DNA of 56,158 nt from an uncultured bacterium. GTDB lineage: Bacteria > Patescibacteriota > JAHJAL01. This document shows, piece after piece, positions 16,106 to 56,158 of the stretch (position 1 is its first letter; each line of letters opens with the position of its first letter). The position numbers and the translations under genes are program-made. The notes under the pieces are model-generated. The model made no database searches, had not been told where the DNA came from, and was given only the letters and a program-made list of their open reading frames with translations. The stretch is taken from positions 1-56,158 of the forward strand of contig CALKWM010000003.1 of NCBI GenBank assembly GCA_938004065.1. The letters run 5' to 3'.

Positions 16106-16132
16106 GAAATGAAGAGAAGCGTTTTTGACGAG

Positions 16133-16206
16133 CGGAGTCGACGGGACTCGAACCCGCGACCTCAGCCGTGACAGGGCTGCGTTCTAACCAACTGAACTAC
16201 GACTCC
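16133..16206 (-). tRNA. tRNA-Asp(GTC)
   Basis: GGAGTCG TA GTTC AGTTGGTTA GAAC G CAGCC CTGTCAC GGCTG AGGTC GCGGG TTCGAGT CCCGT CGACTCC G. No CCA is encoded. Confidence 0.9.
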
Positions 16207-16233
16207 AAATAACAAATGTACATGAACCTAACT

Positions 16234-16290
16234 CCCGCGACCTGTCCGACGTAACGTCGGACCGTTCTAACCAACTAAAACTACGACTCC
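16234..16290 (-). pseudogene. 5' tRNA-Asp-like fragment with the anticodon arm replaced by the hairpin GTCCGACGTTACGTCGGAC
   Basis: It shares the acceptor 5' strand, D-arm, variable loop and T-stem 5' strand with tRNA-Asp. The 17-nt anticodon arm is swapped for a 19-nt palindrome, and there is no T-loop or 3' acceptor strand. Confidence 0.6.
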
Positions 16291-38078: not shown

Positions 38079-38087
38079 TATAATTAT

Positions 38088-38438
38088 AGCAAATTTCATA
38101 AGCCGAGTTCTGTTTCCCCCGACGTAACGTCGGGGTAGTCATCATCAATCTAGGTCGGATGTCGCCATCCTGACTCATGCGGTGGTATTCCACCTTGCAC
38201 CCAAGTAGGGTTTACCAAAATTTCATTGTCACCAATGAATTTCCGCCCAAGGCGGACTTTTCACCTTTCCTCCGACATTACGTCGGAGTAGTATCGTCTC
38301 TGTGGCACTTTCCCTACCCCGATTTCTAACATCGGGGCGGTTGCCGTTAGCAACTACTTCTTGTTAACCAAATAACCAGGTGCTCGGACTTTCCTCTCCG
38401 ACTTTATTAGCGTCGGAGCGATGACTGTTAATTTGCTA
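38088..38438 (-). ncRNA. rnpB: RNase P RNA, bacterial type A
   Basis: The minus strand carries GAGAGGAAAGTCCGAGC, GGGAAAGTGCCACAGAGA, GGTAAACCCTACTTGGGTGCAAG and CCTAGATTGATGATGAC...ACAGAACTCGGCTTAT. P1 is formed by GCAAATT/AATTTGC. Confidence 0.9.
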
Positions 38439-42095: not shown

Positions 42096-42114
42096 GGCGA
42101 CCCTCGCGGTCGCC
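42096..42114 (-). repeat. GC hairpin family A, variant copy (GGCGACC/GGTCGCC)
   Basis: It keeps the flank context of family A (GTAC on one side, purine-rich AAG on the other), but the stem sequence is changed on both arms. Confidence 0.65.
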
Positions 42115-42145
42115 CTTTTCTCTTACTTCACCCGCCCGAGGCGAT

Positions 42146-42179
42146 TGTGCCTCGCCTGCCCGCCTTGGGAGGGGGCGCA
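42146..42179 (-). repeat. GC-rich element family B, copy 1
   Basis: The tgtgcc / ggcgca stem encloses tcgcctgcccgccttgggaggg. About 50 nt is shared with 45681-45727, immediately after a permease stop codon. Confidence 0.75.
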
Positions 42180-42189
42180 TATCTCTTGC

Positions 42190-42987
42190 TCAAGCCGCCG
42201 AATTATATCTCTTAAATCCCACTCTCCATTCTAATGCCAAAATCATTACAAACAACATAAGCATTAACAGCATTTGAACTATTTTTCCCATACCAAAAGA
42301 CCCTTCAAGCACATCGTAAATGGGGTTGGCGACCAAAAAGAAAGGAACTACATACGTCACCGCCAACTGAACCCACCCTGGATATAATTTCCTTGGATAG
42401 ATACCAAACCCCGACAAATTATCTACAAAATATACAAAAAAAGTTGCCTTCTCAATAAAAAATACAATAAAAATTGACACCCAATACAATACCGTTACCA
42501 ATACTATCGAATAAAAAAACACAAACCCAACTTGCAACAACAGATTAATATCCCAACTCAATTCCATTTTTACCAAAATATATGGCAGAAATACAAAACC
42601 ATAAACAAATGCCGGTAAAAATTCTCTCAGAGACATTTTTTGAAAAATCGTTATCCAAAAAGTATTTATTGGTCTTAATATCAACATATCTAAACCGCCA
42701 AAATGAATTTGATTAAAAATCAATCTTATCAACATCCCGGGTGTAATAATAAAAGAAAAAGACATTACCACTTGATACAAAATATAAACAAATAATATTT
42801 CATATCGACCAAATCCGGCAATAGACTCCACTCCAGAAACATCATAAATCATGTTTATTAAATACACTTCCAAAACCACCCAAGAAAGACCCGTAACAAA
42901 TCGAGCCAAAAAATCCACCTTAAAAACCATATCACGCATTATACTCATCCTTGCAATTCGCCACCAAATTTTGAAATACTTCTGCAT
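42190..42987 (-). CDS. ABC-2 type permease, paralog B1 (uncharacterized ABC transport system permease, ABC2_membrane_6/COG3694-like)
   Basis: The N-terminus is MQKYFKIWWR and the C-terminus is KRYNSAA. It has 6 TM helices, plus G-LD-L-RP and YPRKLYP motifs shared with the four other paralogs. Confidence 0.75.
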   Translation of the reverse strand: MQKYFKIWWRIARMSIMRDMVFKVDFLARFVTGLSWVVLEVYLINMIYDVSGVESIAGFGRYEILFVYILYQVVMSFSFIITPGMLIRLIFNQIHFGGLDMLILRPINTFWITIFQKMSLREFLPAFVYGFVFLPYILVKMELSWDINLLLQVGFVFFYSIVLVTVLYWVSIFIVFFIEKATFFVYFVDNLSGFGIYPRKLYPGWVQLAVTYVVPFFLVANPIYDVLEGSFGMGKIVQMLLMLMLFVMILALEWRVGFKRYNSAA

Positions 42988-43003
42988 AAATATAATTTTA
43001 TTT

Positions 43004-43032
43004 CCCGTACGGGCGGACCCATGTGTCCGCCC
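43004..43032 (-). repeat. GC hairpin family A copy 1 (CCCGTAC + GGGCGGAC/GTCCGCCC)
   Basis: It lies within a 69-nt block (42981-43049) identical to 45600-45668. Confidence 0.85.
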
Positions 43033-43033
43033 T

Positions 43034-43072
43034 CTTATTTCTTACTTCTTAATTCTTATTTCTTATTTCTTG
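43034..43072 (-). repeat. heptamer array (AAGAAAT/AAGAATT/AAGAAGT on the coding strand), 5-6 units, starting at the stop codon of paralog B2
   Basis: Plus strand reads cttattt cttactt cttaatt cttattt cttattt cttgcta. Confidence 0.85.
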
Positions 43073-43864
43073 CTAGGCTGCCGAACTATACCTCCTCAAA
43101 CCATCTCTCCACAATAAAAGATATATCATAACTACAATGGTTGTCATCGATATCATCAACCAAAAATCACCCCAAGTATACGTATTCTTTATTATCATAA
43201 AAACAGGATTAATAATCAAAAACATCGGGATCAAATATACAAGCATATTTTGTAATATTTTCGGATAAAATTCCCTGGGATATCTGGTAATATCTTGCGT
43301 ATTGTGGATAAACCATCGTAAAGATTTAAATCTCGGCCAGATAAACCACAACAAACTACTAATCCAAATCATACAAAAAAACAAAATATTCGAAAGTATC
43401 AAAACATATAATAATTGCATAAACCTGGCGATTTCAAAGACAGAAAAAACCTGTTTGATTACCGAAAAGAAAAATAATAGATAAACTACAATAATCAAAC
43501 CAACCGTCATACTAACTTTTTGCATACTGGTAACAAAAACGGTATTTATGGGCTTTATTAAAATAAAATCCAGATTACCTGTAAATATTTGATTGGCAGC
43601 CAAATCAAGACTCGGGTAAACAAATACAAACTGAAACCCCATCATAATTTGTATCATATAAAACACGAACAAAAATTCAGCTTCTGTATACCCTGCAATA
43701 TTGTCTAATCCAGAGGCAGTAAAAAATAATTTGATCAATAAAATTTGAACTGCCATATAAACAAAAGTCGTAACCAATCCCAACAAAAAATCCAATTTAT
43801 AAACCATTTCTTTCATCATACTCATCCTCGCCACCCGCCACCAGATTTTGAAATATTTCTGCAT
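43073..43864 (-). CDS. ABC-2 type permease, paralog B2
   Basis: MQKYFKIWWR...GLRRYSSAA, with the same architecture as the other paralogs. Confidence 0.75.
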   Translation of the reverse strand: MQKYFKIWWRVARMSMMKEMVYKLDFLLGLVTTFVYMAVQILLIKLFFTASGLDNIAGYTEAEFLFVFYMIQIMMGFQFVFVYPSLDLAANQIFTGNLDFILIKPINTVFVTSMQKVSMTVGLIIVVYLLFFFSVIKQVFSVFEIARFMQLLYVLILSNILFFCMIWISSLLWFIWPRFKSLRWFIHNTQDITRYPREFYPKILQNMLVYLIPMFLIINPVFMIIKNTYTWGDFWLMISMTTIVVMIYLLLWRDGLRRYSSAA

Positions 43865-43900
43865 AATTTTTTCTTCTTATATTTCTTTTTTATTTTTTCT

Positions 43901-43939
43901 CTTACTTCTTACTTCTTAATTCTTATTTCTTATTTCTTG
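43901..43939 (-). repeat. heptamer array (AAGAAAT family), 5-6 units, after the stop of paralog B3
   Basis: cttactt cttactt cttaatt cttattt cttattt cttgcta. It degenerates into an A-rich tract reaching the next ATG. Confidence 0.85.
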
Positions 43940-44734
43940 CTAGGCTGCCGACTCATACCTTCGTAAACCATTTACAAACATCAAAACATAAACACTAATC
44001 AAAACAAAAACCATCAACAAGGTTAAAATAAAAATGTTCACGTCATAATTACCTGAGATTACATCATAAACCGGGTTAACTACCAAAAATAATGGCGCTA
44101 CAAAAATCAAAAAATATTGCATCGCATCCGGATAAACTTTTCTGGGATATTTATTGACATCATATGCATAACCCAAAAACCATCGTAGTGCTCCAAATTT
44201 TGGCCAAAAAAACCAAATCAAGCTGGAAATAAAAAACATCAAAGAATAAATTACAAAAGATACAATCATTACCCACAAAATTAACAACCAAATTTGCAAA
44301 CTGAAATTATAATCAAAGTAAAAATAAACCCCGAAAAACAAAGCAACATTCAATAACATCACACTCAAAGCATCCATCAACCAACTGTTAAAAATCGTTG
44401 TATATAGCATTACATTAACGGGCCGAATCAAGAACATATCCAATTTACCACTATATATACTATCAGCCAATCTATGAACAGATGGTATTATATTTATATA
44501 CAAAGAGAACAACAACATTTCTGACAAACACATTACGAGCAAAAAGTCCGATCGTGAATATCCTTCGATAGTTTGTACTCCACCTGATTCAAATAAAAAA
44601 TAAACAAAAGCAAAGTAAATCAACATATACACCGAATTTGCAACCAATCCAACCAGCCAATCGGTTTTATATATCATCCTGATCATTACCCCCACTTTAA
44701 TCACCCGCCACCAAATTTTGAAATACTTCTGCAT
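43940..44734 (-). CDS. ABC-2 type permease, paralog B3
   Basis: MQKYFKIWWR...GLRRYESAA. Confidence 0.75.
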   Translation of the reverse strand: MQKYFKIWWRVIKVGVMIRMIYKTDWLVGLVANSVYMLIYFAFVYFLFESGGVQTIEGYSRSDFLLVMCLSEMLLFSLYINIIPSVHRLADSIYSGKLDMFLIRPVNVMLYTTIFNSWLMDALSVMLLNVALFFGVYFYFDYNFSLQIWLLILWVMIVSFVIYSLMFFISSLIWFFWPKFGALRWFLGYAYDVNKYPRKVYPDAMQYFLIFVAPLFLVVNPVYDVISGNYDVNIFILTLLMVFVLISVYVLMFVNGLRRYESAA

Positions 44735-44774
44735 TTTTTCTTATTTTATTTCCTGTTTCTTTTTTCTCTTTCTT

Positions 44775-44814
44775 CTTATTTCTTATTTCTTATTTCTTAC
44801 TTCTTGCTACTTGC
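44775..44814 (-). repeat. heptamer array (AAGAAAT family), about 6 units, after the stop of paralog B4
   Basis: cttattt x3, then cttactt, cttgcta and cttgctc. Confidence 0.85.
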
Positions 44815-45606
44815 TCACGACGCCGACTCATATCTCGGTATACCATTTCGCCACATTAAAACATTAATCAATAATTGCACTAACAAAACACCTATAATAA
44901 TCATCAAAAATTGCAAATCAAATGTACCATCAATTATTTTGTATATCGGACCAGCAACCAAGAAAACAGGCACTGCAAATGTAAATATCCATTGCATAGA
45001 CCGGGGAAACAACTTGGCCGGTTTTTGTCCCATCCGATCCGCTATCCTTACAAAATTATAATAAGCATCAAATTTTGGAAAATAAAAATACATATAAGCG
45101 CTATTCCAATACAAAAAATACAATATTAAATATGAACTAATAACCACAAACAAAACTAAACCAATGTTTTCTAATGTCCATTCAAAAGAAACTTTGTGAT
45201 AAATATAAATCAAAATAACCAAAAAAAACGATAATCTTAAAATCAAACCGGCTACCCAAGATCTCTGATTATGTATCAAGAAATTACTTTTAGGTCTAAC
45301 TAAAAATAAATCCAACTGTCCCATAAAAATCATATTTCTAAGTCTAACTGCATTTGGATAAACCGACACAGCCGATAAAGTCATTATCAGTTCACTAATG
45401 ATATAAACTAGATAAAAATCGTACATTGTCATTCCAACTATTGTTTCCGAATCTCCAGCTGTAAACAACAAATAAATATATAACAAACTCACAAACTGAA
45501 AAATAAATTCACTGACATTCAAGCAAATATAATCCAAACCATACATCATCTCCGTCTGCCAATTTATATTCATTAACCGCCACCAGATTTTGAAATATTT
45601 CTGCAT
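44815..45606 (-). CDS. ABC-2 type permease, paralog B4
   Basis: MQKYFKIWWR...GIPRYESAS. Confidence 0.75.
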   Translation of the reverse strand: MQKYFKIWWRLMNINWQTEMMYGLDYICLNVSEFIFQFVSLLYIYLLFTAGDSETIVGMTMYDFYLVYIISELIMTLSAVSVYPNAVRLRNMIFMGQLDLFLVRPKSNFLIHNQRSWVAGLILRLSFFLVILIYIYHKVSFEWTLENIGLVLFVVISSYLILYFLYWNSAYMYFYFPKFDAYYNFVRIADRMGQKPAKLFPRSMQWIFTFAVPVFLVAGPIYKIIDGTFDLQFLMIIIGVLLVQLLINVLMWRNGIPRYESAS

Positions 45607-45622
45607 AAATATAATTTTATTT

Positions 45623-45651
45623 CCCGTACGGGCGGACCCATGTGTCCGCCC
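45623..45651 (-). repeat. GC hairpin family A copy 2
   Basis: Identical to 43004-43032 and sits within the 69-nt identical block. Confidence 0.85.
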
Positions 45652-45680
45652 TCTTATTTCTTACTTCTCCCGTCATCAGG

Positions 45681-45714
45681 TGCGCCTCGCCTGCCCGCCT
45701 TGGGAGGGGGCGCA
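45681..45714 (-). repeat. GC-rich element family B, copy 2
   Basis: The tgcgcc / ggcgca stem encloses the same 22-nt loop as copy 1. Confidence 0.75.
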
Positions 45715-45724
45715 TATTTCTTGC

Positions 45725-46519
45725 TCACGCTGCCGAACCATACCTCCTCAGTCCATATTTAAACAACACCAAAAACAACATTACGAACATTCCGGTAACC
45801 AAAAATATTTGCCAAAAATCATCCCACCCCCAACTTTTATCCAATATTTCATATACCGGATTGATAATTAAAAGCATCGGAAATAAAAATACTAAAAAAT
45901 TTCTCATTACGGTTGGATAAATCTTTTTTGGATACTTGGTGACTTCAAATGATTCCCCGACAAATACCCACGCCGCATTAAGCTTCGGCCATATAAAACA
46001 AACTATGATTGATAACCACTTCAACAAACTGTAAATTAGAATGCTATTTAAAACGACAAAAATTATGGCAAACCACTCCCAGTATTCAAAATTCATTACC
46101 CCTGTAAAATACAAATACGGAAAAAACACCAACATATACAAAATAATTACATGTGACTGAACAGACACAAAATGTTGAAACATCATCAAAAATTTCGCAT
46201 TAGCCGGCTTTACCAGCATAAAATCCAAACCTCCGGTATATATTTGCCGCCAAACCAATCTGGCGTTTGGTTGCACAAAAACAAAAATAAAGTAAATCAA
46301 AACCTGTGTCATTGCAAACACTAGATATACTTCATTTAAATCAAACCCAGCTATTTCTTTTACATTACCAGCTTGAAAAAAATATTTAATAAACAGCACT
46401 TGCGTTAAAAAATACACCACTGATGTTACCGATCCAAAAATCATATCAGTCCGATACATCATTGTCTGTTGCACACTCATCCTCATCACCCGCCACCAAA
46501 TTTTAAAATAACTCCACAT
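45725..46519 (-). CDS. ABC-2 type permease, paralog B5
   Basis: MWSYFKIWWR...GLRRYGSAA. Confidence 0.75.
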   Translation of the reverse strand: MWSYFKIWWRVMRMSVQQTMMYRTDMIFGSVTSVVYFLTQVLFIKYFFQAGNVKEIAGFDLNEVYLVFAMTQVLIYFIFVFVQPNARLVWRQIYTGGLDFMLVKPANAKFLMMFQHFVSVQSHVIILYMLVFFPYLYFTGVMNFEYWEWFAIIFVVLNSILIYSLLKWLSIIVCFIWPKLNAAWVFVGESFEVTKYPKKIYPTVMRNFLVFLFPMLLIINPVYEILDKSWGWDDFWQIFLVTGMFVMLFLVLFKYGLRRYGSAA

Positions 46520-46555
46520 ACTTATTTTTTCATTTCATATTTCTTCATAAATATC

Positions 46556-46578
46556 GTCCCGAGCGCTAGTCGAGGGAC
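46556..46578 (-). repeat. GC hairpin family C copy 2
   Basis: ATATCGTCCCGAGCgctagtcgaGGGACAC; compare 36391-36420. Confidence 0.7.
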
Positions 46579-46583
46579 ACCAT

Positions 46584-46618
46584 ACTTGATTCTTGAAACT
46601 TGTTACTTGAAACTTGCT
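46584..46618 (-). repeat. heptamer array (CAAGTTT/CAAGTAA/CAAGAAT on the coding strand), 5 units, after the stop of permease A
   Basis: acttgat tcttgaa acttgtt acttgaa acttgct. Confidence 0.85.
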
Positions 46619-46625
46619 TATTCGC

Positions 46626-47417
46626 TCACCCTCCCACCAACTCCAATCTCTTTAATCCTCGATTCCACACCAATGTGAGTAACAAATACAATCCAACCAT
46701 CCAAGCAATCTGCACCGCAAAATGCACCACCAATTCATCATAACTATACTTTCCCAAATATATTGACGCCGGCAAGTTAAAAATCGCAACAAAAGGTGTA
46801 TATTGCATCACATTTTGGATGATCTCGGGCATAAATTGTACCGGTATCATCTTGCCCGCAAAAAAGCTGACAATAAAATTAAACGCCCAGATAATATTGC
46901 CCGTCTCCACTGTCCAAAAGGCGATTGAGCCCAACATTGTGTACAAAAACATACTGGAAAACAACGCAATAATCACCATCAATACTGTCAAAATCAAATA
47001 CATCCAATTGCTTGGACCAACAAAAATATCCGTAAAATACACCAAACCAAACACCGGCAACACAAAGAAAAACATCGACATTAAATTTTGAGAAATATTT
47101 TTTGCAAAATAAATATATAAACTATTCAAAGGTAATATGAGATAATTAGCGATATTCCCATGCTGAACACCATCTTTAATTTCTTCAAAAGTACTGACTG
47201 CCAAAAAATGCCGGAACAATTCCACCAGCAAAAAATACGTTAGCAATTCCTTGAAAGTAAATCCGGCAATATCACCACTCTGTGCATAAACCGCTTTCCA
47301 GAGATAAATCATGATCAAGAAACCCAAACTGCGCATCAAAATTTCCGCAAAAAAATTTGCTTTAAACGCCAGCACTGATTGAATTTGATTAACAAAAAAC
47401 CTTCGGTACTTATTCAT
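46626..47417 (-). CDS. ABC-2 type permease, type A (COG4587-like partner permease)
   Basis: A 6-TM protein with a distinct N-terminus (MNKYRRFFVNQ) and C-terminus (RGLKRLELVGG). Confidence 0.75.
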   Translation of the reverse strand: MNKYRRFFVNQIQSVLAFKANFFAEILMRSLGFLIMIYLWKAVYAQSGDIAGFTFKELLTYFLLVELFRHFLAVSTFEEIKDGVQHGNIANYLILPLNSLYIYFAKNISQNLMSMFFFVLPVFGLVYFTDIFVGPSNWMYLILTVLMVIIALFSSMFLYTMLGSIAFWTVETGNIIWAFNFIVSFFAGKMIPVQFMPEIIQNVMQYTPFVAIFNLPASIYLGKYSYDELVVHFAVQIAWMVGLYLLLTLVWNRGLKRLELVGG

Positions 47418-47441: not shown

Positions 47442-47477
47442 AAGTTTGAAAAGTTTGGAAAGTTTGCTAAGTTTATT
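47442..47477. repeat. four tandem 9-nt units (aagtttgaa/aagtttgga/aagtttgct/aagtttatt) between the ATPase and permease A
   Basis: Read directly. The last unit overlaps the ATPase stop codon. Confidence 0.8.
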
Positions 47478-48474
47478 TCCCTTCCGCAAATATCTCCGCA
47501 ATCACATCTGCCGCTTGTTTCTCTTGTACATCGATATCGTCAATTTTGAATTTCTTTACCAATTTCGCCAAGACATCGGAGACATTTTCCCTCGGTATCG
47601 CAATCTTGGCACTCAATTTATCAAACTCCAAAACCTTGCCATATTTCAACAAATCCTTTTTCAATACTTTCTCATCAAAAACCAAATCAATATATTTCTC
47701 CCGCGCGTATTTTTTCACCAATCCGGCATAACTGTTATCATAGATCTTTTCACCCTTGTTGATAATTATCACCCGCTCACACAATTCTTTGATATCATCC
47801 ATATAGTGACTGGTCAAAATAATCGTCGCCTTCTTTTCTCGATTATATCTCTTGATAAAACCCCGCACCGCTTTTTGCGCCGTCACATCCATCCCGATCG
47901 TTGGCTCATCCAAAAATATCACCTGTGGATCATGCAGCAACGCCGCAATCAACTCACATTTCATTTTTTGCCCCAATGACAACTTTCTCACCGGTACTTC
48001 CAAAAATTCTTTTACCTCCAGCAAATTTGATAGATAATCCAAATTGGCCCGAAATTTTTTCTCCGGTATTTCATAGATATCGCGATTGAGTAGAAAACTC
48101 TCAATCGCCGGCAAATCAAACCACAACTGTGATTTTTGCCCCATGACCATCGAAATTTTCCGTTTATAATCATCCTGGTGATCCCACGGATAATATCCCA
48201 ACACCTTGGCACTACCCGAAGTGGGATACAAAATCCCCGACAACATCTTTAAAGTTGTCGTCTTGCCCGCCCCATTTGGACCCAAAAACCCGATCAATTC
48301 TCCTTTTTCAATATCAAATGACACACCATTCACTGCGTGTACATACTGTTTTTCGCTTTTAAATAAACTCTTAACCGAATTCCAAAAACCTTCCGCTTTT
48401 TTCGTCAGCTCAAAGGTTTTCGTCAAATTCCTAACAATTATCGCTTTCGCCATAATTTCCATCCTTTTTATCAA
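47473..48474 (-). CDS. ABC transporter ATP-binding protein (COG4586-like, with C-terminal extension)
   Basis: Walker A GPNGAGKTT, signature LSLGQKMK, Walker B VIFLDEPT. Confidence 0.9.
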   Translation of the reverse strand: MIKRMEIMAKAIIVRNLTKTFELTKKAEGFWNSVKSLFKSEKQYVHAVNGVSFDIEKGELIGFLGPNGAGKTTTLKMLSGILYPTSGSAKVLGYYPWDHQDDYKRKISMVMGQKSQLWFDLPAIESFLLNRDIYEIPEKKFRANLDYLSNLLEVKEFLEVPVRKLSLGQKMKCELIAALLHDPQVIFLDEPTIGMDVTAQKAVRGFIKRYNREKKATIILTSHYMDDIKELCERVIIINKGEKIYDNSYAGLVKKYAREKYIDLVFDEKVLKKDLLKYGKVLEFDKLSAKIAIPRENVSDVLAKLVKKFKIDDIDVQEKQAADVIAEIFAEGK

Positions 48475-51868: not shown

Positions 51869-51912
51869 ACACCAATCGGTGGATACGCCTTGGGCGCATA
51901 CTTCTATCAAAA

Positions 51913-52066
51913 TGGACCTTAAAGGGACTTGAACCCATGACCTGTCCGACGGTCGCCTTGCGGCTCGTCGGACCGCTCTAGCCAATAAATGGACCTTGAA
52001 GGGACTTGAACCCATGACCTGTCCGACGGTCGCCTTGCGGCTCGTCGGACCGCTCTAGCCAATAAA
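51913..52066 (-). repeat. two tandem 77-nt tRNA-Ala-derived units lacking the 5' acceptor/D-stem strand and carrying a 30-nt hairpin in place of the anticodon arm
   Basis: Each unit reads TTTA TTGGCTAGAGCG [GTCCGACGAGCCGCAAGGCGACCGTCGGAC] AGGTC ATGGG TTCAAGT CCCTT CAAGGTCC A. The period is exactly 77 nt. Confidence 0.85.
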
Positions 52067-52140
<74 letters not shown>

Positions 52141-55950: not shown

Positions 55951-56024
55951 GCATCCGTAGCTCAACTGGATAGAGCGTCTGGCTTCGGACCAGAAGGCTG
56001 AGGGTTCGAATCCTTCCGGATGCA
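55951..56024 (+). tRNA. tRNA-Arg(TCG)
   Basis: GCATCCG TA GCTC AACTGGATA GAGC G TCTGG CTTCGGA CCAGA AGGCT GAGGG TTCGAAT CCTTC CGGATGC A. No CCA is encoded. Confidence 0.9.
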
Positions 56025-56060
56025 TTTAAGAGCAAAATAATTATTTGCTCAGTTTAGTCT

Positions 56061-56158
56061 AGGGTTCGCCCGGGCATTCGCCGGGCGTGGGGCGGATGCC
56101 CCACGAATCCTTCCGGATGCATTTAAGAGCAAAATAATTATTTGCTCAGTTTAGTCTA
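56061..56158 (+). repeat. partial tRNA-Arg copy (T-arm to 3' end plus 37-nt trailer) with two GC hairpins inserted in the T-loop; period 97 nt, cut by the window edge
   Basis: 56105-56158 is identical to 56008-56061. The insert reads CGCCCGG gcattcg CCGGGCG followed by TGGGGC ggat GCCCCA (56067-56103). Confidence 0.85.

Follow-up and report, generated by a model that had tools for sequence, protein, structure and literature searches.

The window analysed here is the whole 56,158-nt stretch of contig CALKWM010000003.1 from an uncultured bacterium of the Patescibacteriota, and it carries on its minus strand an intact tRNA-Asp(GTC) gene preceded by a partial copy of the same gene, in which a palindromic hairpin takes the place of the anticodon arm. 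This 5' fragment and its hairpin are described below, together with similar tRNA-derived copies and with a family of small GIY-YIG nuclease genes found at the equivalent position in other genomes of the candidate phyla radiation (CPR); loci outside the window are designated by L numbers. The tRNA-Asp locus consists of the following elements:

16234–16290, minus strand: 5' pseudo-tRNA-Asp fragment, 57 nt (sequence reading; BLAST against tRNA-Asp; alignment with the fragments of L255, L256, and L257)
16244–16262, minus strand: palindrome GTCCGACGTTACGTCGGAC, 19 nt, with an 8-bp stem and a 3-nt loop, standing for the anticodon arm (pattern census; folding)
16207–16233, minus strand: spacer between the fragment and tRNA-Asp, 27 nt (sequence reading)
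16132–16206, minus strand: intact tRNA-Asp(GTC), source of the copied fragment (ARAGORN; Rfam, 72 bits)

The fragment is made up, in order, of the acceptor 5' strand, the D arm, the hairpin replacing the anticodon arm, the variable loop, and the T-stem 5' strand. Its first part (16290–16263, minus strand; GGAGTCGTAGTTTTAGTTGGTTAGAACG) comprises the acceptor 5' strand and the D arm, 28 nt that match positions 1–26 of the tRNA with a C to TT difference in the D stem, where pairing is retained. The 17-nt anticodon arm of the gene (CAGCCCTGTCACGGCTG) is then swapped for the 19-nt palindrome, after which the variable loop and the T-stem 5' strand follow (16243–16234, minus strand; AGGTCGCGGG). Both flanks were recovered when the window was searched by BLAST with tRNA-Asp (28 nt at 93% identity, E 7e-4, and 10/10 nt). 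The first-pass annotation of this DNA had described a 57-nt 5' copy lying 27 nt upstream of the gene on the minus strand, with a palindrome in the exact place of the anticodon arm; these lengths and boundaries are exact, and the replacement is confirmed base for base (19 nt for 17 nt). The fragment is not an assembly artefact, since the locus is 100% identical in L001, an assembly made independently from the same population.

Because the 3' strands of both the T stem and the acceptor stem are missing, the fragment cannot fold as a tRNA. It was not called as a tRNA by ARAGORN, and Rfam at E ≤ 1 gave no family for the fragments. The hairpin folds at −10.7 kcal/mol (z-score −3.2), and only the hairpins fold better than shuffled sequences: the leader as a whole has a z-score of −0.7, so that a structured whole leader of tRNA-Asp was rejected, its fold not surpassing that of shuffles. 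The fragment is located between a conserved upstream leader and tRNA-Asp, and no promoter-like site was found between fragment and gene; therefore, it is probably transcribed with tRNA-Asp, and co-transcription as a leader is plausible from the arrangement. An intron, a split tRNA, or a permuted tRNA were also rejected, as the matching halves are absent and an intact gene is adjacent.

Hairpin-disrupted copies of other tRNA genes in the window

Two further tRNA genes of the window are accompanied by partial copies:

52067–52140, minus strand: intact tRNA-Ala(GGC), directly upstream of the two Ala units (ARAGORN; Rfam)
51913–52066, minus strand: two tandem 77-nt tRNA-Ala-derived 3' units, from the D loop to the 3' end (pattern census; repeat analysis; BLAST)
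55951–56024, plus strand: tRNA-Arg(TCG)
56025–56158, plus strand: 97-nt units downstream of tRNA-Arg(TCG), the window ending within unit 2 (repeat analysis)

In the Ala units, GTCCGACG-AGCCGCAAGGCGAC-CGTCGGAC takes the place of the anticodon arm. The 8-bp stem is the same as that of the Asp fragment 36 kb away and is present in both units; the first-pass annotation had reported a shared basal stem. The loop of this hairpin holds a nested GNRA mini-hairpin (GCC-GCAA-GGC), and the whole folds at −18.4 kcal/mol (z-score −4.2). The tRNA-Arg gene is the third in the window with hairpin-disrupted partial copies. Each of its units consists of a spacer and a copy running from the T loop to the 3' end, in which a 35-nt GC-rich double hairpin (56069–56103) splits the T loop at its centre, TT-CG-AA, with the CG duplicated on both sides of the insert. 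In the 10-kb extension of the window (L267; 8530–8800), two complete 97-nt Arg units are followed by a terminator-like hairpin.

The pattern GTCCGACG-N3-14-CGTCGGAC has three matches in the window and none in 100/100 shuffles, and the three full palindromes (16244–16262, 51944–51973, and 52021–52050) all lie inside tRNA-derived scaffolds. The context-free intergenic dispersal typical of repetitive extragenic palindromes (REPs) or miniature inverted-repeat transposable elements (MITEs) was thus not observed in the window, where all full copies are in tRNA-derived units.

The arm swap and a nuclease gene in other CPR genomes

A scan of a genome collection with the pattern stem-N3-30-stem-NGGTC gave mostly chance matches in high-GC Actinomycetes; useful among the matches listed was L238, a Patescibacteria metagenome-assembled genome in which the identical 19-mer lies within a tRNA scaffold that adjoins tRNA-Val and is truncated at its 5' end. 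The identical 19-mer also occurs in a tRNA scaffold of L249, another member of the Patescibacteria. With a tighter pattern, metagenome contigs yielded eight loci, all of low GC and all beside tRNA-Val genes, with an invariant stem and the loops TTA, CAA, TCA, and TGA. Three of the eight carry, between the tRNA pieces, an open reading frame (ORF) of 86–88 aa with a Pfam GIY-YIG catalytic domain. Adding to these three ORFs the clusters obtained from homologues, whose contigs were fetched, gave ten nuclease protein clusters, all of which (10/10) adjoin tRNA genes. CCGAY/RTCGG hairpins are located within ~100 nt in 9/10 of them; L263 differs, with GTCGCC-GAC-GGCGAC.

Overall, at least ten further CPR loci show the arm swap, the tRNA genes concerned being those for Asp, Ala, and Val. 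The stems vary compensatorily (GTCCGACG/CGTCGGAC, GTCCGATG/CATCGGAC, and TCCCGACG/CGTCGGGG), with changes from C:G to T:A through a U·G intermediate and from T:A to C:G. From the same substitution in two tRNA families, the first-pass annotation had argued for a specific mechanism or function rather than random decay. The recurrence of identical or compensatorily changed stems in these loci upholds the argument against random decay, while evidence of a function did not emerge.

In one form of the intact cassettes, the order is a 5' pseudo-tRNA whose anticodon arm is swapped for GC-rich CCGAY/RTCGG hairpins, then the GIY-YIG ORF of 86–90 aa, then the intact tRNA. The 5' pseudo-copy usually extends from position 1 to the T stem or to T54-T55, and its D and T loops are sometimes replaced as well. 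In most of these cassettes, the stop codon of the ORF is formed by U8-A9-G10 of the intact gene, be it that of tRNA-Asp, tRNA-Ala, or tRNA-Val. The closest counterpart of the locus in the window is L256, where tRNA-Asp positions 1–27 are followed by GTCCGATGTTACATCGGAC, AGGTTGCGAGTT, 7 nt, and an 89-aa ORF whose TAG lies at U8-A9-G10 of the intact tRNA-Asp; the layout is that of the Asp locus in the window, but still containing the ORF. A Daviesbacteria genome (L257/L260; L260 is MFDS01000010 and encodes an 87-aa protein) has the same arrangement at tRNA-Asp, with an extra D-loop hairpin. It is also found at tRNA-Ala in L255 and at tRNA-Val in L246, L275, and L277, so that L256, L257, L255, L246, L275, and L277 all have a GIY-YIG ORF at the equivalent position. 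A mirror form, in which the intact tRNA is followed by the ORF and by a 3' pseudo-copy starting with TAGAGCG and bearing the hairpin, is present in L245/L247, L248, and L263, and hairpin-bearing pieces occur on both sides in L246, L263, and L277. When four 5' fragments were aligned with their own genes, the flanks matched the local tRNA, the arm was swapped, and several ended after T54-T55; among equivalent fragments elsewhere, truncation points and insertions are variable.

The ORFs ending at U8-A9-G10 lie at 1722–1988 in L246, 1501–1770 in L256, 1501–1764 in L257, and 1175–1447 in L277. In the mirror form of L245, the ORF starts with an ATG that shares bases with the CCA end of the tRNA preceding it. 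L276 has a second GIY-YIG ORF (1663–1953), a more distant one, located after tRNA-Ser, and downstream of it are short tandem repeats and then a copy of the tRNA-Ser 3' end starting in the T loop. This case shows that the habit is not limited to Asp, Ala, and Val tRNAs.

The spacer of the window's locus contains an ATG (16223–16221) in frame with a TAG at tRNA positions 8–10 (16199–16197). In local alignments, it can be matched both to the ORF start of L248 (TCATG-CCATTTGTT, p ~0.09) and to the leader of the window itself (TACATTTGT, p ~0.04). Judging by these alignments, the 27 nt may derive from the beginning of a GIY-YIG ORF that has since been lost, or else from the leader, partially duplicated.

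Viral contigs were scanned as well. The tRNA-context pattern had no match in them, the general palindrome gave chance matches, and the nuclease profile retrieved weak relatives only; from these searches, the hairpin/nuclease system does not look viral. One viral contig of 14 kb and 57% GC (L065; IMGVR_UViG_3300001336_000118) holds 13 intergenic copies of GTCCGACG-NNN-CGTCGGAC between 960 and 14089, which mostly adjoin gene ends. No UPF0213-type GIY-YIG gene was found in the 14 kb examined and, given also its GC content, we treated this contig as unrelated, its repeat being probably a phage regulatory palindrome.

A minimal GIY-YIG nuclease

The nuclease of the cassettes belongs to the Pfam GIY-YIG family (E 1e-13 to 1e-17) and, with 86–90 aa, consists of the catalytic domain without a DNA-binding domain. 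The nearest solved structures are those of two UPF0213 proteins (E 2.5e-14 and 1.6e-11), followed by SLX1, whereas I-TevI is more distant. In tblastn searches against phages, the only similarities (33–39% identity) were to proteins of Rhizobium and Ralstonia phages, with no T4-like match. The family amounts to 3540 representative clusters at E ≤ 1e-10. Among gene calls extended upstream of the GIY motif, 24/52 translate tRNA or CCGAY-hairpin DNA in their N-terminal extensions, compared with at most 7 for the hairpin signature and at most 6 for the tRNA signature in shuffled controls. Therefore, the association with tRNA genes and hairpins extends well beyond the loci that we read.

In the intact cassettes, the stop codon of the ORF lies 3' of the RNase P cut, so that processing of the tRNA by RNase P would remove it and leave a non-stop mRNA. 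The position of the stop codon inside the tRNA in most cassettes thus suggests a coupling between tRNA processing and expression of the nuclease.

We also considered that the intact tRNA might be immune to the nuclease through an altered T loop. This idea was dropped, as only one of nine loci deviates (L277, TCCAATC; read by eye). The 5' arm of the hairpin, GGTCCGA, is one mismatch away from the T loop GGTTCGA, which is suggestive only; a T-loop mimic was set aside because the GG belongs to the insertion site and the copies in RNase P RNA lack it.

The hairpin core outside tRNA scaffolds

The census of GC-rich hairpins in the window found the CCGAC core outside tRNA-derived units only in RNase P RNA:

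38083–38438, minus strand: RNase P RNA, bacterial class A (Rfam)
38117–38135, minus strand: P19-like helix CCCCGACGTTACGTCGGGG of RNase P RNA (hairpin census)
38270–38288, 38317–38337, and 38396–38418, minus strand: three further RNase P RNA helices on the CCGAY/RUCGG core

The inner 15 nt of the P19-like helix are identical to the hairpin of the Asp fragment, and four RNase P RNA helices in all use the CCGAY/RUCGG core. These are native helices of normal length. In ~133 kb of other CPR loci, a sample biased to tRNA regions, there is one solo intergenic copy, the hairpin CCCGACGTAACGTCGGG (L247, 325–355) between two protein-coding genes. It is flanked by a 7-nt direct repeat, AGAACCT, which may be the target-site duplication of a mobile mini-palindrome. 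Possible signs of target-site duplication are seen at this solo copy (AGAACCT) and at the Arg T-loop insert (CG); the anticodon-arm replacements show none. Hairpins inserted in D and T loops come after GG.

The hairpin is therefore not strictly tRNA-specific, as its core is also found in RNase P RNA and, in a single case, between protein genes. Within the window, the full palindrome occurs only in tRNA-derived units; a ubiquitous REP landing without preference for tRNA scaffolds had been named in the first-pass annotation as a finding against its reading.

Syntenic relatives and gene context

The nearest syntenic relatives (L250–L254) share gene order, GC content, and skew with the window, and the synteny PpiC – tRNA-Asp – PAP2/M16 is kept in them. 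They are nevertheless distant, with PpiC 50–65% identical. In all five (5/5), the Asp fragment and its hairpin are absent, and tRNA-Asp(GTC) directly follows the same upstream leader. The fragment is therefore best read as a lineage-specific gain, because the relatives have the leader and tRNA-Asp without it; on this comparison, it appears as a recent insertion and not as a conserved leader. The locus thus shows a presence/absence polymorphism at a conserved site (fragment in the window, not in the distant L250–L254). Absence from close relatives had been named beforehand as a finding that would speak against a specific role; the fragment is indeed missing from the nearest syntenic relatives, yet these are not close.

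The window belongs to a CPR chromosome: besides the class A RNase P RNA, it has housekeeping genes, one of them for a DUF5656 protein, and the named homologues of its proteins are from Patescibacteria. The genes flanking the tRNA loci are likewise housekeeping ones (PpiC, PAP2, alanine racemase, and UvrC), and no integrase or prophage gene was found near any of these loci in the window and L267. An integrase or prophage origin was rejected, the neighbours being housekeeping genes.

The window has a GC content of ~35% and an extreme and uniform GC skew of ~−0.38 on the plus strand, with the same skew in L250–L254, and nearly all long ORFs in the regions examined are on the minus strand. Six tandem paralogues of an ABC-2 family permease, of 263–265 aa each, lie at 42190–47417 (minus strand), downstream of an ABC ATPase gene (47473–48474). 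Some spacers between these genes contain GGGCGGAC-CCATGT-GTCCGCCC hairpins (43011–43032 and 45630–45651) and other GC-rich repeats. More GC-rich hairpins are present in AT-rich spacers (42096–42219, 45681–45754, and 51880–51900), several with GNRA-type loops; one such hairpin, GGCGACC-GCGAG-GGTCGCC, is upstream of tRNA-Gly. A 74-nt GC-rich block is present twice, 3.5 kb apart. At the left edge of the window, there is an exact 55-nt direct repeat (1–55 and 79–133, period 78), probably in a repetitive coding region.

Origin of the tRNA-Asp fragment

Our favoured explanation, which we hold to be probable, is that the Asp fragment represents what remains of the left flank of a nuclease cassette, small and selfish, that resides in CPR tRNA genes. 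The window's copy abuts a tRNA gene, as the cassettes do (57 nt, at 27 nt from tRNA-Asp), and it lacks the feature that defines them, the ORF; as there is no GIY-YIG ORF at the locus, it can only be a relic. By comparison with the intact loci, the Asp locus would represent a left flank without the ORF, the Ala units a right flank in two tandem copies, and the Arg units ORF-less relics.

The following mechanism could produce these structures. By analogy with SegB, a GIY-YIG homing endonuclease of T-even phages, the nuclease would break tRNA genes at the TΨC loop or close to it. Recombination would repair the damage, with the D-loop, variable-loop, and T-loop sequences common to Asp, Ala, and Val genes serving as homology, and the repair would copy the cassette into new tRNA genes, giving rise to partial and tandem tRNA duplications. 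The hairpin, placed between the nuclease gene and a homology arm, would be carried along with the cassette, which would account for a hairpin that is constant across families and genomes inside flanks that always match the local tRNA. The arm swap probably inactivates the pseudo-copy and interrupts a direct repeat that would otherwise delete the ORF, and it may also serve in binding of the nuclease. In favour of this cassette model are the architecture of the intact cassettes, their association with tRNA genes, the variation of the stems, and the recent gain of the fragment. Indirect hints of the cleavage are the 5' fragments ending at T54-T55 and the CG duplication at the centre of the Arg T loop (TT-CG-AA), the latter fitting a 2-nt staggered cut. 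In its present state, the Asp copy would have lost its ORF and is most likely inert, forming part of an extended pre-tRNA-Asp leader that RNase P would remove; taken alone, the feature in the window is probably a decayed relic without function. As for the conserved swap, it may reflect either structure-directed mobility or a safeguard built into the cassette.

Several points weigh against this explanation. The nuclease lacks a DNA-binding domain and does not qualify as an orthologue of SegB; both its target and its activity are putative. No GIY-YIG ORF is present in the six-frame translation of the 56-kb window or in the next 10 kb (L267), so that the former presence of a cassette at precisely this site is a deduction and not an observation. 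The intact tRNAs beside the ORF have a canonical T loop in 8/9 loci (by eye), and a simple picture of an immune donor fails. The spacer is ambiguous, its likeness to the beginning of a nuclease ORF being no greater than its likeness to the window's own leader. A duplication followed by gene conversion, with no ORF ever in between, could also yield the Asp fragment. Finally, the presence of the hairpin core in RNase P helices and once between protein genes is not predicted by the cassette model alone.

In another explanation, the hairpin itself is a tiny mobile palindrome, MITE- or REP-like and comparable to mitochondrial GC clusters and double-hairpin elements, that enters or replaces stem-loops in the DNA of structured RNAs. 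The GIY-YIG gene would then be an autonomous partner supplying the nuclease in trans, or a mere sharer of permissive sites, and the Asp fragment would be a partial tandem duplicate struck by the hairpin. This is unlikely in our view. It would account for the five of eight distinct hairpin loci found by pattern (two in the window and six from the scans) that have no nuclease gene in the stretch examined, for the occurrence of hairpins in D loops and T loops (after GG) as well as in anticodon arms, for nesting such as the GNRA mini-hairpin within the Ala-unit loop, for the solo copy of L247 with its direct repeat, and for the core shared by four RNase P RNA helices. The SLX1/UPF0213-like character of the nuclease, related to structure-specific enzymes and not to site-specific ones with DNA-binding domains, points in the same direction. 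However, every full palindrome in the 56 kb belongs to a tRNA-derived unit, and the tRNA-biased ~133 kb of CPR loci contain a single copy outside both tRNA and RNase P RNA. In addition, cut-and-paste insertion would not give the exact replacement of a 17-nt arm, there is no associated transposase, and the RNase P helices are native, so that their shared core could simply be a helix sequence typical of the lineage. A related reading, to which we give a somewhat lower chance, joins the CCGAY/RTCGG hairpin and the minimal SLX1-like nuclease in a two-part selfish system acting on DNA structure and not on sequence. The nuclease would cut stem-loops or cruciforms of structured-RNA genes (D, anticodon, and T arms, and peripheral RNase P helices), and repair would insert the element's own hairpin, leading to arm swaps in dispensable tRNA copies and to homogenised RNase P helices. 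We retain this structure-directed, mobile hairpin because of the RNase P cores, the solo copy, the insertions after GG, and the SLX1-like nuclease; if the two-part reading is true, one hairpin would be replaced by another, a mechanism that is not known from the mobile elements described to date.

A functional RNA is improbable. The fragment would in that case be a structured 5' leader of pre-tRNA-Asp, involved in stability, processing, or regulation, or else a tRNA-like decoy; its position between the conserved leader and the gene, hence its probable transcription, and the great stability of the hairpin agree with such a role, and the compensatory changes, with U·G pairs on the sense strand only, fit selection at the RNA level. 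Its absence in all syntenic relatives examined is difficult to reconcile with this role, and so are the missing 3' strands that preclude a tRNA fold, a whole-leader fold no better than that of shuffles, the lack of detection by ARAGORN or Rfam, and the variable truncations and insertions of the equivalent fragments elsewhere. Even more improbable, to the point of being nearly negligible, is that these copies are integrase attachment-site (att) duplications left by the insertion or excision of an element at tRNA genes. Partial tRNA copies are indeed the classic footprint of integrative elements, and the Ala and Arg units are 3' copies, but the Asp fragment is an upstream 5' copy, neither an integrase nor an element lies between or near the repeats (the neighbours being PpiC, PAP2, alanine racemase, and UvrC), and the copies directly adjoin the tRNA with the anticodon arm replaced and not duplicated.

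Comparison with known systems

Integrases leave partial tRNA copies beside an intact tRNA gene. The locus described here differs from such att sites in having no integrase, no element between the copies, a 5' fragment, and a substituted anticodon arm. With REPs and bacterial interspersed mosaic elements (BIMEs), MITE-like palindromes, and the mitochondrial GC clusters or double-hairpin elements, the hairpins described here share a short GC-rich palindromic form in an AT-rich genome, recurrence with a conserved stem and a variable loop, and occasional nesting; short target duplications may be a further common trait. In contrast to these elements, the hairpins of the window are confined to tRNA-derived units (the core also occurring in RNase P RNA) and replace an arm exactly, and they are accompanied by no REP-associated tyrosine transposase (RAYT) or other transposase, the associated gene being that of a GIY-YIG nuclease.

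In CPR rRNA genes, GIY-YIG ORFs have been described within non-intron insertion sequences, at the tops or bases of stem-loops (PMC11270868). These insertions resemble the tRNA cassettes in their occurrence in the same bacterial group and in the placement of GIY-YIG genes in or beside structured-RNA genes without an intron ribozyme (PMC11270868). They differ in concerning rRNA genes only, and a term search of that paper retrieved no mention of tRNA, hairpins, or palindromes. No description of the arrangement of hairpin-swapped pseudo-tRNAs with a nuclease was found in the literature searched. A nuclease family that nests in CPR tRNA genes and leaves partial copies behind matters for the annotation and the stability of these genes, which are probably mostly single-copy, as CPR genomes are tiny.

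The closest functional parallel is SegB of the T-even phages T4 and T6. This free-standing GIY-YIG homing endonuclease is encoded in a tRNA cluster, has as its target an 11-bp TΨC motif conserved in tRNA genes, generates 2-nt 3' overhangs, and takes adjacent tRNA sequence with it when it spreads (PMC2330249). Many sites of its own genome are cut as well, and it brings about a recombination-dependent tandem amplification of tRNA segments (PMC13096335). The likeness lies in a nuclease gene among tRNA genes; moreover, the recognition of TΨC and the 2-nt stagger of SegB can be compared with the T-loop breakpoints and the CG duplication found here, and its tandem amplification with the 77-nt and 97-nt units. 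In contrast, the CPR genes are chromosomal, encode proteins of 86–90 aa of the UPF0213/SLX1 type, and have ORFs ending inside the tRNA, their flanks are hairpin-swapped pseudo-tRNAs, which are unmentioned in the parts of the SegB texts consulted (PMC2330249; PMC13096335), and the copy in the window is without an ORF. A SegB orthologue would combine the GIY-YIG domain with a C-terminal DNA-binding domain, a combination not found in the CPR proteins. Therefore, by analogy, the system would work like a tRNA-targeting homing endonuclease of the SegB type without being a member of the SegB family and, if this is true, the SegB principle extends from phages to bacterial chromosomes, with a minimal enzyme made of the catalytic domain only.

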